In this document: one piece after another, positions 11,135-61,330 of the stretch | How positions within the stretch are numbered: position 1 is the stretch's first letter | Layout of the letters: the number at the start of each line of letters is the position of its first letter | Notes under the pieces: generated by a model | Told to the model about the DNA's origin: nothing | Seen by the model: only the letters and a program-made list of their open reading frames with translations | Databases searched by the model: none | DNA from: Octopus vulgaris | Taxonomy: Eukaryota | Length of the DNA stretch: 64,000 nucleotides | Direction: 5' to 3' | Assembly (NCBI GenBank): GCA_951406725.2 | Contig: OX597818.1 | Coordinates: 130,014,001-130,078,000, forward strand | Made by a program: the position numbers and the translations under genes

Positions 11135-11410
11135 ACTTAATAGTCAAGACTACTGAAAACGTTGCAAGACACAATGAAAATTTTAGGAAAATAAAAACAA
11201 GATATAAGTGGAAATTTTACCTGTGAGTGTGTTAAATTATGACCCTCCCCAGACACAACAGAATATGCTTCAAAACACGAACTCACATAAAGAATCTTGC
11301 AAACGAAATCCCCAAACCAAGTTTCTTAATCTTCCTCAAATTGAGTTTGCAATTTTTCTCTCAGTTGCCGGGCTGTCCTGATTATAAATAAAAACCTTGA
11401 CTATCCTTGA
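11135..11410 (+). mobile_element. Penelope-like short repeat (same family as 60770-61330) with a hammerhead-like motif at 11150-11186
   Basis: Shares TTTTAGGAAAATAAAAA...GTGAGTGTGTT...CCCTCCCCAGACACAACAGAATATGCTTCAA with 60892-61050; motif cta-CTGAAAA-c-gttgc...acaat-GAAA-attt-tag. Confidence 0.5.
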
Positions 11411-11843: not shown

Positions 11844-12052
11844 AAATCAATAGCTTAATACATATTACATATATATATAATCTACCCAGTATTCATTCTA
11901 TATCGAGTGAAAAAACGGTATGGATGATTTGTTTTGGAGTCTAATAATACCATGTATGCCTATGAAGATTTACAAACATACTTTCCCAATGATACTCGGT
12001 TTTTTCTCAAACCTTTTATAATGTGATACAAGTCTTTGGTGTAGCAATGGCA

Positions 12053-12147
12053 TGCAGCTGAAGAAGGGTTTTGATCTATCTGTTATATCGATCATGCATT
12101 GATGTAAGAATAAGTTGTTCTATAAAGCCTGAAACATATGTACCGCA
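12053..12147 (+). ncRNA. Type-I hammerhead ribozyme motif inside a ~385-bp element (about 11880-12260) flanked by (TA)n
   Basis: tgcag-CTGAAGA-agggttt...aaagcct-GAAA-catatg-TA-ccgca; one mismatch each in stems I and II; palindromic ACATATGT; GUA site. Confidence 0.65.
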
Positions 12148-12256
12148 ACATCCTTTGCGTCTTGTTTTTCATTTATTTCATTTGATACATATATTCTATT
12201 ACCTATGCTACTAGCTGGCATATACAGGTGCTTACATTTATCAATTATTCACCCTG

Positions 12257-12292
<36 letters not shown>

Positions 12293-16475: not shown

Positions 16476-17187
16476 TGAAGATGTGCTGAAAAGTTCCTCA
16501 CTTTGGGTAAAAGAAAATACAGGTGGATCAGTTAATAATGATTTTATTCAACATATTCCCCTCTCAGATCCACACACTTATTGCAGTGGTCCTTCAGTTT
16601 TTCTAAGCTCTGTAAAAGAATTCAGAAGGTTGCACCTCTAGCTAAGCCTTTTGAAATACCCTTAAAGCAAGGAATTTTCAGCACCCCTTTGGGTAAAAGA
16701 AAATACAGGTGGATTAGTTAATTATGATTTTATTCAACATATTCCCCTCTCAGATCCACACACTTATTGCAGTGGTCCTTCAGTTTTTCTAAGCTCTGTA
16801 AAAGAACTTCAGAAGGTTGCACCTCTAGCTAAGCCTTTTGAAATACCCTTAAAGCAAGGAATTTTCAGCACCCCTTTGGGTAAAAGAAAATACAGGTGGA
16901 TTAGTTAATTATGATTTTATTCAACATATTCCCCTCTCAGATCCACACACTTATTGCAGCAGTCCTTCAGCTTTTCTAAGCCCTGTAAAAGAACTCAGAA
17001 GGTTGCACCTCTAGCTAAGCCTTTTGAAATACCCTTAAAGCAAGGAACTTTTCAGTACCCTTTTCAGTACACTTATTGCAGTGGTCCTTCAGTTTTTCTA
17101 AGCCCTGTAAAAGAATTCAGAAAGTTGGGCCTCCAGTCAAGCCTTTCGTGATGCCCTTAAATCCAGAAAATTTTCGGCACCCAGTTG
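16476..17187. repeat. Tandem array (3 full units of 186-187 bp plus a partial one) derived from a Tc1/mariner-type MITE
   Basis: CTTTGGGTAAAAGAAAATACAGG recurs at 16501, 16687 and 16874; TIR-like GTGCTGAAAAGTTCCT / AGGAATTTTCAGCAC; TA at outer ends; monomers at 19805 and 28341. Confidence 0.85.
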
Positions 17188-28160: not shown

Positions 28161-28198
28161 TCTTTTACGTTTCGAGCCTACGCTCTTCAACAGAAAGA
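28161..28198 (-). ncRNA. Minimal type-I hammerhead motif in a ~190-bp element (28064-28250) between (TA)n tracts
   Basis: Minus: tcttt-CTGTTGA-a-gagc gtag gctc-GAAA-cg-TA-aaaga; perfect stems I and II; A6 altered to U. Confidence 0.55.
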
Positions 28199-28307: not shown

Positions 28308-28339
<32 letters not shown>

Positions 28340-28340
28340 A

Positions 28341-28522
28341 TGAAGGGGTGCTGTAAAGTTCCTGACTTTGGGTAAAAGAAAATACAGGAGGATCAGTTAA
28401 TTATGATTTTATTAAACATATTCCCCTCTCAGATTCACACACTTATTGCAGCAGTCCTGTTAAAGTACTCAGAAGTTTGAACCTCCAACCAGGCCTTCTG
28501 CAAACTTTTCAACACCCTCTCA
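28341..28522. mobile_element. Tc1/mariner-type MITE monomer
   Basis: TA-TGAAGGGGTGCTGTAAAGTTCCT ... ACTTTTCAACACCCTCTCA. Confidence 0.75.
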
Positions 28523-28528
28523 TGTATG

Positions 28529-28576
<48 letters not shown>

Positions 28577-28622
28577 GAAAGAATGGAGTTGAACGACGAA
28601 TTAACAAAATTCCTTTATTTTA

Positions 28623-28705
28623 TTTTCGACATATGTTTCGAAGGCTGCATATTCCTAATTTCGAAGAAATAAGGGGTGCATTATGCCGCCTTCTCATCAG
28701 GAAAA
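28623..28705 (-). ncRNA. Type-I hammerhead ribozyme with a canonical core, in a ~380-bp element (28569-28950) flanked by (TA)n
   Basis: Minus: ttttc-CTGATGA-gaaggcggcata...tatgcagccttc-GAAA-catatg-TC-gaaaa, then AATAAA; 5-bp stem I, 11 of 12 bp stem II, palindromic ACATATGT, GUC site. Confidence 0.75.
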
Positions 28706-28975
28706 GTAAGGAACTTATGTCAGCATCAAGATGCACAAAAACGTTTAGATGCCTGCCCACACGGAGCCCATAGCGATAATTTCATTTATTTGTATTAAAA
28801 AAAAACACACAAATTTCCACACGATAGCACGTGATTTCTGTCCTAGGCATGTAGCTTCAACCGTGTTTTTCTGACGTGAATTAGCTACCCAGGTATTGGT
28901 TAACCGAATTATCCATAATAAGATAATTCATTCAACTACTCAATTATTCTATATATATATAGTGACACGTGCTGG

Positions 28976-29322
28976 TGGTGCTTTTACGTGTCACCGGTAC
29001 GGGGCCAGGCGATGCTGGCAACGGACACGAGCCATCCGTTCGTGTCCGTTGCCAGCATCGCCTGGCCCCGTGCTGGTGACACGTAAAAGCACCATCTGTT
29101 CGTGGCCGTTGCCAGCTCTGTCTGGCACCTGTGCAGGTGGCACGTAAAAAGCACCCACTACACTCACGGAGTGGTTGGCGTTAGGAAGGGCATCCAGCCG
29201 TAGAAACACTGCCAGATCTGACTGGGCCTGACGAAGCCTTCCAGCTTCACAGACCCCAGTTGAACTGTCCAACCCATGCTAGCATGGAAAGCGGACGCTA
29301 AATGATGATGATGATGATGATG

Positions 29323-35626: not shown

Positions 35627-36678
35627 TGAACTGAACTGAATCAATTTCAGCTTGTGAGCTGTGGCCATGCTGGGGTACCACTCTTTGGTGTTGCTACATT
35701 ACTTTTACTTCACCAATTCATTTTGGAACTTGACATTTGGTGCATAAGGGGAGTTTGCCATCGCTGCCCTCATTTGCACTTCACGTTGTGAAAGTTAGTT
35801 CATATGGGACTCTTAAGAGTAAGAGACCTAGTTTTGTTTTGAAGACACCTACTACTGCTTGATTTCCATCTTTCAGAAAGTCATGCAGAAAGTCAATCGC
35901 CTGACTATGCAGTTTGTGACATATCATTCCATGATCAACTTTGTCAAAAGCCTTTGCAAAGTTGAGGTATATCACATCCACATTTGAGTGGTTGAGGAGC
36001 TGTTTCAACACCCGGTCATAATGTTGTAAGAGCTGAGTTAGGTAGCTTTTTCCTGTTGGTTGTCAGTCAGCAAGTCATTTGCCTCAAGGAAGGTGATTAG
36101 TTTTCTTCTAACTATTCGTTCCATGACTTTGCTGATGTGTGAGGTCAGCGAGATAGGTCTGTAGTTTTTGGCCTCTGTTCTGCTACCTCCTTTATGAATG
36201 GGGCATATTTTACCTTTCTCCAGATTGCTTGGAAGTTTGCCAGTTGTAAGGAAACTCTGGAAGAGATACTACAGTGGTCTTGCTAGGACTTGCTTACATG
36301 CTTTGAGAAGGATTGCTGGGAATCCATCAGGGCCAGTAGCTGAATTTGGGTTCATTTATTCTATAGCCCTTATCACATCGTCTTCTTTTATATTGATGTA
36401 ATCAATCATCACTGCCTCTGTTTTTGTATCTGCAGTGGCAAAAACGTCAGCTGGACTGCTGACTTGCAAGTGTCCTACAGATGGAATGAAAACACTTTTG
36501 AATTGTTCATTGAGTATTTCACTTATCCTCATTGAATTTCCTATGAGTGAACCATCTTTCTCGAGGAGTAGCCCTACCCTGCACTGCACCGAGGTTGTTT
36601 CTTTGGCAAACTTGTAGAATGCTCTGGGGTTAGATCTTATATTGTCTATAGCCCAGGCTTCTTTTTCTGCTCTTTCTT
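35627..36678 (-). mobile_element. CR1-clade LINE ORF2 (reverse transcriptase) remnant with an internal deletion and retained 3' end
   Basis: Minus-strand peptides KNYRPISLTSHISKVMERIV and NVDVIYLNFAKAFDKVDHG, C-terminal VFKTKL..LLRVP; frameshifts; 3' tail CCCCAGCATGGCCACAGCTCACAAGCTGAAA. Confidence 0.9.
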
Positions 36679-38115: not shown

Positions 38116-38654
38116 GAATAATTTCCAGAAAAATAATTTCCAGTGCTTTAATTTAGAATTACTATATAAAAAGATTTTCTGTTGAGTGAGAGAGAAAAAT
38201 TTCTTTGAAAGTAGTTTCATCAAAAAGGAAACAAATTGTTCAGATAATGTTGATTGTCCTGTCACTCTAAACAGTATTAAATGGCTGTTCATAGCATTTT
38301 GAATTCTTTGTACATCTTCTATAATTTTCAGTGCTTTTAGTTAAAGGATGACCTAGTTACATTTTTTATTTATTTATCTGAATGACTTAGCCAGAAGAGG
38401 AAGAGCAGCTTGTTAAGACCATTTCAGAGGTATCAGAGACTTGAGAGTAAATTATCCTCAGTCCAAATATCTTGCTCAAATGCTGGCAGAAGAGTAGATT
38501 CTGCTAAACACATCCAAAGCATTAACAAGGGTGTTAAACTGGGTGACAAATTAAGTCACTCATCCATATTATCAATAATTTCCTGTGCTTGAGGAGACCT
38601 ATTGAGTCAAGTACATCAACATCAAAAAATCAAATGGAAATTGTAGTTGTGATA

Positions 38655-38847
38655 CCTGTGCCAGTGGCATATAAAAAGCACCCACTACACTTACGGAGTG
38701 GTTGGCGTTAGGAAGGGCATCCAGCTGTAGAAACACTGCCAGATCAGACTGGAGCCTGGTGCAGCCTCCTGGCTTCCCAGACCCCGGTTGAACCGTCCAA
38801 CTCATGCTAGCATGGAAAACGGATGTTAAACGATGATGATGATGATG
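38655..38847 (+). mobile_element. Family C retroposon 3' end
   Basis: AAAAAGCACCCACTACAC...GGAAGGGCATCCAGCTGTAG...(GAT)n. Confidence 0.9.
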
Positions 38848-38926
38848 AATATATCTATTGATTTGGAACTTATTTTTCACAATTACAAAGAACACCTAAC
38901 AGTAAAAAATAATCATTCCTTATATA

Positions 38927-45150: not shown

Positions 45151-46509
45151 ATAGGTTAGGAGTGTGCAGAGATGGATGTGTACCGTAACTCTTGACTAAG
45201 TCTCTCGGAACTTTTTTTTTTATATAAATAAATGAATAAAATGAAATAAATTTTGAGATAGGATGCTGATGTAGGGAATGGGATAATAGTAGTTGTAGTA
45301 GTGGTGGTGGTGGTGGTGTCAGGGAGTGGAGGAAGTTAGTAGCAGTAGAAAATGATAATACAAAATGCAATATGTATGTATGTATACATGCATGTATAAA
45401 CACACATACATACATAGACATTCTTTTATATATTTTTCTTTTTACTTGTTTCAGTCACTGACTTGCATGCAACCATGCTGGGGCACCATCCTAACAGATC
45501 AAATCTTTTATTTGATAAAAGACTGGTGCTTATTCTATTGGTCTCTACATTGCCAGGATGTAAACAAACCAGCACTGGTTGCCGAGCATTGAGAGAGATA
45601 CACAAAAATACATACATACTCATATATGGGAGTAGACATACAAATGTGCCCATCTTACACATTTCCCTGTAGATTAACAAAAATTATGGACAAACTTATT
45701 ATATTTTCAGTCCTTATTGGGGTCTCATCAGAGGTGCTTATATCACTTGACTAATCCCAGATAAACAAGTAGCCATTCTGTTTATATATATTTCAAATCT
45801 AGTAACTACAGAGAACTGGAGCTACAAATTTGCGTTATATTACTATTTAGAGCCCAGTGCATACAGTATTAAGGTATGATATAATATATGCAAGCCTATA
45901 TGTAATATATGGAAACCTATGTACAGGATTGGAGCTTTGGATTCCAATGACATCCTCTACCTAAGGCACCTGCAAGCTCACACCAAAACACTGGAACAAA
46001 ACCATTTATGAATTACTTTTCATAGACAATGCAGCCCTTGTTGCTCACTCAGAGTTAGCCCTGCAAGACATCGCTTCTTGCTTTGCTGAAGCTACCCAGC
46101 ATTTTGACTTAAAAGTCAGTTTAAAGAAAAAAGAAGTCCTCCAGCAAAAATACTACAGCAAGAATGTCGCATCCATTACATCACCATCAGAGACTGAAAT
46201 AAAGACAGTCAACCAGTTCAGCTACCTGAGGTGCACCATCTTGTCAGATGTGAAAATTGAGAGGGAAGTTGATAACAGACTGGCCAAAACAAGCAGTGCA
46301 TTCAGCACACTGAACAAAAGAGTCTGGAACAATAATCATTTGAAGAAAGGGACCAAGATCAGTGTATACAGGGATATCATTCTGTCTATCCTTCTGTATG
46401 GCTCAGAGCTGTGGGTCATCTATCAGCACCACCAATAATACCTTGAGCAATTCCATCAGCACTGCTTTCTCATAATCTCCTGGAGATTATAATTTCTCAT
46501 AATATACTG

Positions 46510-46812
46510 TCGGTGCCACGTAAAAAGCACCATCCGAATCGTGGCCGAAGCCAGTGCCACCTCGACTGGCTTCCGTGCAGGTGGCACGTAAAATGTACCA
46601 ATCCGACCGTGGCCGATGCCAGCCTCGCCTGGCTCCAGTGCAGGTGGCACGTAAAAAGCACCCACTACACTCACGGAGTGGTTGGCATTAGGAAGGGCAT
46701 CCAGCTGTAGAAACATTGCCAGATAAGACTGGAGCCTGGTGCAGCCTTCTGGCTTCCCAGATCCCCGGTCGAACCGTCCAACCCATGCTAGCATGGAGAA
46801 CGGACGTTAAAC

Positions 46813-46846
<34 letters not shown>
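46510..46846 (+). mobile_element. Family C retroposon with internal ~65-70-bp tandem units
   Basis: Three CACGTAAAA(A/T)G-(C/T)ACC units, (GAT)n tail, TSD ATACTG at 46504-46509 and 46847-46852. Confidence 0.9.
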
Positions 46847-60769: not shown

Positions 60770-61053
60770 TATTCTGTTGTGTCTGGGGAGGGTCATTTTC
60801 TTTTTGTGCCTTATAATGTAACACACTCACTGGTAAAATTTCCACTTATTTCTTGTTTTTATTTTCCTAAAATTTTCGTTGCATCTTGCACGCAACGAAA
60901 GTTTTAGGAAAATAAAAATAAGAATTAAGTGGAAATTTTACCAGTGAGTGTGTTACATTATAAGGCACAAAAAGAAAATGACCCTCCCCAGACACAACAG
61001 AATATTCTTTAACACACGAACTCACATAAAGAATTTTGCAAACCAAATCCTAA

Positions 61054-61089
<36 letters not shown>

Positions 61090-61330
61090 TGTTGTGTCTG
61101 GGGAGAGTAATTTTCTTTTTGTGCCTTATAATGTAACACACTCACTGGTAAAATTTCGACTTATTTCTTATTTTTATTTTCCTAAAATTTTCGTTGCATC
61201 TTGCAACCTTTTCAATAGTCTTGACTCTGTTCGACACAACAGAAAATAACTCTCCCCAGACACAACAGAATATGCTTCAACACACGAACTCATATAAAGA
61301 ATCTTGCAAACCAAATCCAGAAACGAAATA
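60770..61330. mobile_element. Four partial copies of a Penelope-like repeat in alternating orientation, including a 113-bp-arm palindrome
   Basis: Arms 60770-60882 and 60892-61004 (3 mismatches), (TA)n at about 61057-61088, further copies about 61089-61226 and 61233-61325. Confidence 0.75.
61182..61218 (-). ncRNA. Hammerhead-like motif with a U3-A8 core
   Basis: Minus: cta-TTGAAAA-g-gttgca aga tgcaac-GAAA-attt-tag; perfect 6-bp stem II; palindromic AAATTT. Confidence 0.5.

Follow-up and report, generated by a model that had tools for sequence, protein, structure and literature searches.

Penelope-like elements (PLEs) typically occur as 5'-truncated insertions, often with an inverted truncated copy at their 5' end and a one-sided tail (PMC8557442). 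Several PLE clades target (TA)n, and Hydra-clade elements have hammerheads close to their 3' end (PMC8557442). PLE hammerheads have been described with a long helix II and a palindromic helix III, as well as in pairs on opposite strands at distances of 100-700 bp (PMC4209133). At the enzyme level, a purified PLE protein nicked and extended both strands of AT-rich DNA, and reverse transcription began at two sites inside the RNA, between which the tail lies (PMC11167929). Among cephalopods, 235 Rfam hammerhead loci are given for the giant squid genome (PMC6962438), and 190 Penelope-like families, amounting to 6.83% of the genome, for the annotation of O. vulgaris (PMC13282606). Hammerheads are frequent in PLE ends and in similar repeats of animals and have been published from both, so that finding the motif is in itself unsurprising.

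The locus described here lies in a 64-kb stretch of Octopus vulgaris DNA (hereafter the window) that consists of animal-like non-coding DNA with many microsatellites and interspersed repeats. It belongs to a high-copy repeat that is probably the 3' (pseudo-LTR) part of a PLE, or a non-autonomous derivative of one, present as two 5'-truncated arms in (TA)n. The family was absent from the literature searched; the O. vulgaris repeat library and Repbase may contain it.

A type I hammerhead with all core positions canonical was read on the minus strand at 28602..28722 (C3-U4-G5-A6-N7-G8-A9, G12-A13-A14, A15.1-U16.1 and H17). Helices of 5, 11/12 and 2 pairs can form round the core, and the motif is open at helix I. 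The core box CUGAUGA (CTGATGA in the DNA, recovered both by reading and by descriptor) occupies 28700-28694. Next to it, constrained folding placed stem II at 28693-28682 paired with 28640-28651 (11/12 bp), with a single G.A mismatch at 28687/28646 and G10.1-C11.1 as closing pair. The 30-nt loop of this stem can form an inner hairpin, and the two core boxes are 54 nt apart (28640..28693). The GAAA box (28639-28636) precedes C-ATAT-G (28635-28630); under constraint, a 2-bp stem III forms here from an A-U and a C-G pair round a 4-nt loop. Stem III falls within a palindrome of 8 nt, ACAUAUGU, at 28636-28629 of the minus strand, a feature absent from the earlier note. The descriptor places U28629 and C28628 in the GUC triplet, with a predicted cut after 28628. 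Stem I pairs TTTTC (28705-28701) with GAAAA (28627-28623) over 5 bp, as seen in the sequence and in the constrained fold, and beyond a 2x7 internal loop it is predicted to extend by 14 more pairs (28722-28708 with 28615-28602). Two overlapping AATAAA words (28624-28619 and 28619-28614) coincide with the 3' strand of stem I and the internal loop, and would sit on the 3' cleavage product; such proximity to the cut would seldom arise by chance (0.04 per 30 nt). The earlier note had described a canonical CUGAUGA/GAAA/GUC hammerhead on this strand with an 11/12-bp stem II and a large loop, an AATAAA a few bases past the cleavage site and (TA)n flanks; all of these were found again, the AATAAA twice (28624-28614 in all) and the TA runs at about 28536-28569 and 28950-28961.

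This is a real type I hammerhead motif. When the whole window was scanned with a full descriptor (core, stem II, GAAA, stem III, UH and stem I), the site cut after 28628 was the single match. Chance expectation, derived from 300 resampled windows in which local dinucleotide frequencies were kept, amounted to 0.003 matches per window when stem lengths were equal, and to 0.013 for 4+4 bp. Rfam gave no match at gathering score anywhere in the 64-kb window, and in 28400-29100 it returned 30 weak matches (E<=10), none of them to a hammerhead; most were to models of microRNA hairpins and fell on the TA run and on an inverted repeat nearby. Rfam likely misses the motif because of the 54-nt stem-loop II. 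The silence of Rfam and an unconstrained minimum-energy fold that is not a hammerhead could be taken to mean that the resemblance is fortuitous. Yet the low chance expectation, a core unvaried among the variable places listed for the family (see below) and the presence at 11880-12260 of another, decayed motif built in the same way make chance resemblance extremely improbable.

Insert 11880-12260 (plus strand) is likewise about 380 bp long and TA-flanked. Its decayed type I hammerhead has a CUGAAGA core at 12058, a 66-nt stem-loop II, GAAA at 12131, the palindrome ACAUAUGU and a GUA triplet. It carries three exact words of the studied element on one strand and in the predicted colinear order (12131, 12167 and 12241), two of which occur nowhere else in the window beyond these two elements. 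Whole-length alignments of both elements were no better than those of shuffles (128/300 and 160/300).

Other repeats were recorded in the window. Three short minimal hammerhead-like motifs at 28193, 49485 and 56538 (all minus strand) belong to another repeat family; with 0-1 change in the core box, an extra base after A9, a 3-4-bp stem II and GAAAC, they resemble described PLE minimal hammerheads. None of the three passed the full descriptor and their folds were no better than those of shuffles. The inverted repeat responsible for the weak microRNA-model matches is a GC-rich, near-perfect one (28976-29094, 91% self-match over 119 nt) that starts an interspersed repeat recurring at 46530-46833 and 38654-38858. 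The span 60770-61197 also contains long inverted repeats (94% over 235 nt at 60770-61004 and 81% over 306 nt at 60892-61197), to which pieces at 11142-11320 are related. At 16501-17064, a unit of about 187 bp is repeated three times in tandem (copies 95-97% alike), and a piece related to this unit was found at 28339-28458, just left of the studied element.

Part of the stretch was contained in 20 of the 24 listed public runs (9 studies, 4 organism codes). In four runs, X1, X3, X4 and X7 among them, 2785, 1263, 1194 and 147 contigs aligned to the element, most of them 90-100% alike. These contigs are short and unstranded; X7 was only guessed to be RNA and its contigs served for DNA layout only. 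Depth refers hereafter to summed contig depth, from which no copy number was derived. Metagenome contigs gave no match to the two-part pattern and 53 matches to a 17-nt word, none of which (0/53) had a core box within 110 nt upstream. This word sits in a multi-copy repeat of several metagenome sets (L001, L004, L012, L015 and L020, as well as L027-L029, L031-L033, L037, L041, L048-L050, L052 and L053).

None of the 19 core and stem III positions was among the 37 listed variable places, whereas 18 of the 108 non-stem positions in 28600-28760 were variable among those listed (Fisher one-sided p=0.043). A further 7 variant rows, 1 joint and 238 loose ends exist beyond those listed, and a core variant could be among the former. 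Stems I and II held five listed variable places in 34 positions: two turn into wobble pairs, one repairs the G.A mismatch and two break a pair, the latter at 28690 (13-37% of depth) and 28705 (26-50%). No two-sided compensatory change in these stems appeared among the listed variants, which are not phased. At 28667, the family letter converts a U-G pair of the inner hairpin in the stem II loop into C-G. The AATAAA zone is variable at 28617 and 28619 and lacks a 5-nt unit in 7-24% of depth; the AATAAA signal may persist in the main family variants. Compared with the family majority, the window copy has a different letter at some 10 of 381 positions, all outside the core, and is therefore a fairly young, intact member. 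A lack of related genomic copies conserving the core had been named in the earlier note as a reason to give up the motif; since many such copies exist (thousands of contigs in four runs, with 0/19 core positions variable among those listed), this objection fails. Copy number, which the same note proposed to check together with tandem arrangement, was very high in the four runs, while the 64-kb window held no tandem, no second same-strand copy and no other copy of the element.

The 380 bp, previously regarded as a single element, probably represent two arms in opposite orientation and not one colinear unit. On the left, a (TA)n run at 28536..28569, presumably the target microsatellite, borders the hammerhead-bearing arm A (28569..28780, minus strand), whose 3' end (end 1) was located by contigs next to this run, at about 28569-28575. 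The predicted cut site falls 59 nt before end 1. The non-coding arm B (28780..28950, plus strand) follows end 1 in colinear copies and would constitute a tail of about 170 nt; its second end (end 2, about 28947-28950, plus strand) also lies next to (TA)n, represented on the right by (TA)6 at 28950..28961. A 12-bp word, TTTCATTTATTT, stands at end 1 (28569..28580, minus strand) and recurs as an inverted second copy at the junction between the arms (28780..28791, plus strand). In the window copy, arm A is cut at 28780.

Contigs from the four runs argue for this division. Depth fell from end 1 towards 28780 in all four of them (Spearman rho -0.70, -0.90, -0.99 and -0.87) and rose along arm B towards end 2, the latter trend being significant in two of four (but not in X4, p=0.07, or X7, p=0.26); such gradients are what 5' truncation would give. 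In the junction bin (28780-28792), depth dropped to 0.07, 0.22, 0.32 and 0.62 of the neighbours' mean. TA-like loose ends were found before 28575 in at least 14 contigs of X4 and at least 7 of X1, and behind 28947 in at least 4 contigs of X7. Behind 28780, arm A contigs continue with different sequence (at least 11 in X4 and at least 8 in X3). Opposite-strand joints from 28572/28575 to 28786-28818, in which arm B comes directly after arm A, occurred in X4, X1 and X7; they are low in depth (7-185) and none was among those listed for X3. The loose ends before 28780-28799 in X1, X3 and X7 correspond to the sense tail of arm A, and the colinear A-B form is thus visible, as joints or as loose ends, in all four runs. 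As arm A contigs continue otherwise than in the window and arm B contigs are preceded by the tail of arm A, the family unit should therefore consist of an upstream part, arm A and arm B, in that order.

Thirteen listed arm-to-arm joints displayed a layout like that of the window, with scattered cut points in arm A (28594-28741). Seven of these 13 resume at 28796-28810, within 30 nt after end 1 (crude binomial p=0.008), a proportion inflated by the fact that joint detection favours long B sides. Joints 28606-28737, inside arm A, and 28802-28746, which goes back, were left out of this count. The two ends of the element resemble each other in inverted orientation (weak gapped similarity, reached by 25 of 1000 shuffles, post hoc). 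A decayed second hammerhead was also considered in arm B and rejected, its core being incomplete and the comparison of arm A with arm B being no better than that of shuffles (162/300).

The ends could resemble each other because a priming signal is repeated or because they are terminal inverted repeats that have become worn. The second possibility would make the element a MITE-like DNA transposon inserted in TA, with the hammerhead as a passenger and the joints as internal deletions, to which the TA flanks and the minimum of depth in the middle would also be suited. Moreover, 13 of 16 letters agree between 28907-28922 and the loose end behind 28780, which could mean complementary unit ends; however, a match of this quality is not rare in the window (2 matches against 1.1 expected). 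Many contigs have TA after end 1, although this end is internal to the colinear A-B unit, and both arms continue in other contigs otherwise than at the window junction. A DNA transposon, besides, would not need a core that is unvaried among the listed places. A MITE-like origin is accordingly quite doubtful in our eyes.

A classical non-LTR retrozyme offers another reading, in which head-to-tail monomers of 170-400 nt are cut and circularised and the window copy is a rearranged solo insertion. It overlaps with the PLE reading, the mobilising enzyme being the same, and adds tandem arrays and circular RNA. Animal non-LTR retrozymes (PMC7229834; 10.64898/2026.07.22.740005) are indeed comparable in their non-coding nature, high copy number, type I hammerhead and unit size: the unit here is at least about 400 nt, with a palindromic stem III as well, and retrozymes of mussels measure 350-390 bp (PMC7229834). 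They have further been proposed to derive from PLE pLTRs (10.64898/2026.07.22.740005). Yet they are defined by head-to-tail repeats and circular RNAs (PMC7229834), whereas the present element is known from its DNA layout. No tandem occurred in the 64-kb window and no head-to-tail joint was among those listed, in comparisons where a tandem junction could be missed as the reference holds no sequence upstream of 28780; and the ends shown in contigs run into (TA)n. A retrozyme of this kind is therefore considered unlikely.

The layout agrees better with that of PLEs, to which the element is assigned as a probable part or derivative. Neither an RT nor a GIY-YIG gene was found near it in the window (Pfam, 351 reading frames), the contigs being short, and membership therefore rests on DNA layout and ribozyme. 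Relics at 45965-46435 (plus strand) and 36041-36676 (minus strand) come from LINE-type reverse transcriptase genes and are not PLE-like on the evidence: the frame at 45965-46435 had 23 RT-type relatives at 41-75% identity in a protein search, and a weak RVT_1 match (Pfam) fell on one or other of the two. As in PLEs, the element combines a fixed 3' end with variable 5' truncation (clear in arm A, weaker in arm B), an inverted 5'-truncated copy at the 5' end (the window junction and the 13 similar joints) and a hammerhead near the 3' end with a short palindromic helix III. It further shares the (TA)n insertion preference of Hydra and Naiad elements. The tail is one-sided, but about 170 nt long instead of 30-40, and no partial tandems forming pseudo-LTRs were seen within the window.

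Type I hammerheads from PLE pseudo-LTRs, as described in PMC4209133, resemble the present one in topology, canonical core, G10.1-C11.1 pair, long helix II, 5-bp proximal helix I and tiny palindromic helix III, and likewise occur as dispersed, mostly single copies. The present motif differs from them by the size of helix II (12 bp plus a 30-nt structured loop, against 7-8 bp in Schistosoma), by having no extra nucleotide between A9 and G10.1, by a stem I extendable by 14 pairs and by having no linked PLE ORF (PMC4209133).

Similarities in target and orientation are encountered in Hydra-clade PLEs, including Hydra-1_Obim, which share the (TA)n target, a sense 3' hammerhead and a palindromic stem III (PMC8557442). 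An inverted 5'-truncated copy is recorded there for one member, as here. Yet the hammerhead sequence is unlike that of Hydra-1_Obim, and the loops II listed for Hydra elements are short (3-10 nt; PMC8557442). The clade is, moreover, defined by protein, whereas the present element is known from non-coding DNA.

Cephalopod Naiad PLEs resemble the element by their (TA)n target and by the inverted copy and tail (PMC8557442). Unlike it, they are described as being without canonical hammerheads; some are nevertheless marked 'HHR_half_core' in that source, with core halves 35-50 nt apart, a spacing similar to that of 54 nt here. The element matched none of the octopus consensi published for Naiad and Hydra, either in short-word searches or in the hammerhead rows of PMC8557442, and short-word searches of its Naiad supplement gave no hammerhead match and two isolated word matches in unrelated contexts. 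The 3' ends of Naiad_Obim and Naiad_Ovul in that supplement have their near-core box, long hairpin and GAAA arranged as in a hammerhead; judged by their letters, they may be long-stem-II hammerheads missed by the published descriptors. Poseidon of Anolis (PAc) is similar in having two fixed ends downstream of a hammerhead and AT-rich targets, but its RT start sites lie next to each other and delimit a tail of 30-40 nt, while the two ends here are about 170 nt apart (PMC11167929).

Folding was examined over 28600-28730, a region that folds better than shuffles (z -3.0). Its unconstrained minimum-energy structure differs from the hammerhead, which makes up about 0.001 of the ensemble, a value understated by an energy model that has no tertiary contacts; pair probabilities in stem II were 0.42-0.57. 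The palindrome ACAUAUGU was computed at +2.4 kcal/mol as a hairpin and at -7.0 kcal/mol as an intermolecular duplex, and a trans double hammerhead (-35.3 kcal/mol) came out about 10 kcal/mol better than the monomer arrangement (-25.2 kcal/mol). Monomers of the PLE hammerheads published so far show weak activity or none, and these hammerheads are also described as having no monomer and low dimer activity (PMC4209133; PMC6765202). One of them cleaves only with the protein of its element and is dispensable for insertion in vitro (PMC11167929). Among Xenopus retrozyme dimers, 1/9 cleaved (10.64898/2026.07.22.740005). From these models, the lone window copy is predicted to cut little or not at all without a partner copy.

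No support was thus obtained for the earlier suggestions that this single copy could still be active and that it could cut a pre-mRNA from within an intron: stem III has 2 bp, the window holds no same-strand partner, published PLE monomers are weak, and no host exon was recognised in any of the 351 selected reading frames (351/351 searched with Pfam: five weak matches, none at curated cut-off, in a search by which short exons would be missed). Intron cleavage is left unsupported because no host gene was found, and by a lone dimer-type motif it is unlikely. A ribozyme adopted by the host and active as a monomer in an intron would account for the intact core, for the long stems I and II and for the few differences from the family majority, all outside the core. 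Yet the youth of the family explains this intactness, and the tiny stem III, the small (if understated) share of the hammerhead in the ensemble, the window free of recognised host genes and the rarity of cleavage among the Xenopus dimers all speak against it. We regard host adoption as very improbable.

A mechanism can be outlined for the favoured PLE reading. A PLE reverse transcriptase/GIY-YIG enzyme would nick both strands of the TA target, and cDNA would be primed at two preferred places on one RNA, namely end 2 and, about 170 nt upstream, end 1. One cDNA would copy arm B back to about end 1 and the other would copy arm A; both would then be joined head to head, with a 12-bp duplication in the case of the window copy. 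The ribozyme would serve the RNA of the element, by processing or circularisation of tandem transcripts, and for cleavage two copies would combine into a double hammerhead by way of the palindromic stem III, with possible aid from the protein of the element. As a whole, we put forward only tentatively the proposal of a PLE-mobilised family whose RNA priming sites lie about 170 nt apart and share a repeated sequence signal, whose back-to-back insertions record priming on two strands, whose 'tail' is the distance between both sites and whose long-stem-II hammerhead is missed by standard models; the half-cores of Naiad elements could, under this proposal, be real ribozymes.

Two features are apparently unusual in this family: the 54 nt between core boxes, and a tail of about 170 nt as compared to the 30-40 published so far. 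From the first, it would seem that PLE hammerheads are under-counted when searched for by descriptor or with Rfam. As to the second, the way in which inverted, tailed PLE insertions form is described as not yet validated (PMC11167929), and thousands of young insertions with ends lying far apart provide a genomic test of how PLEs form them.
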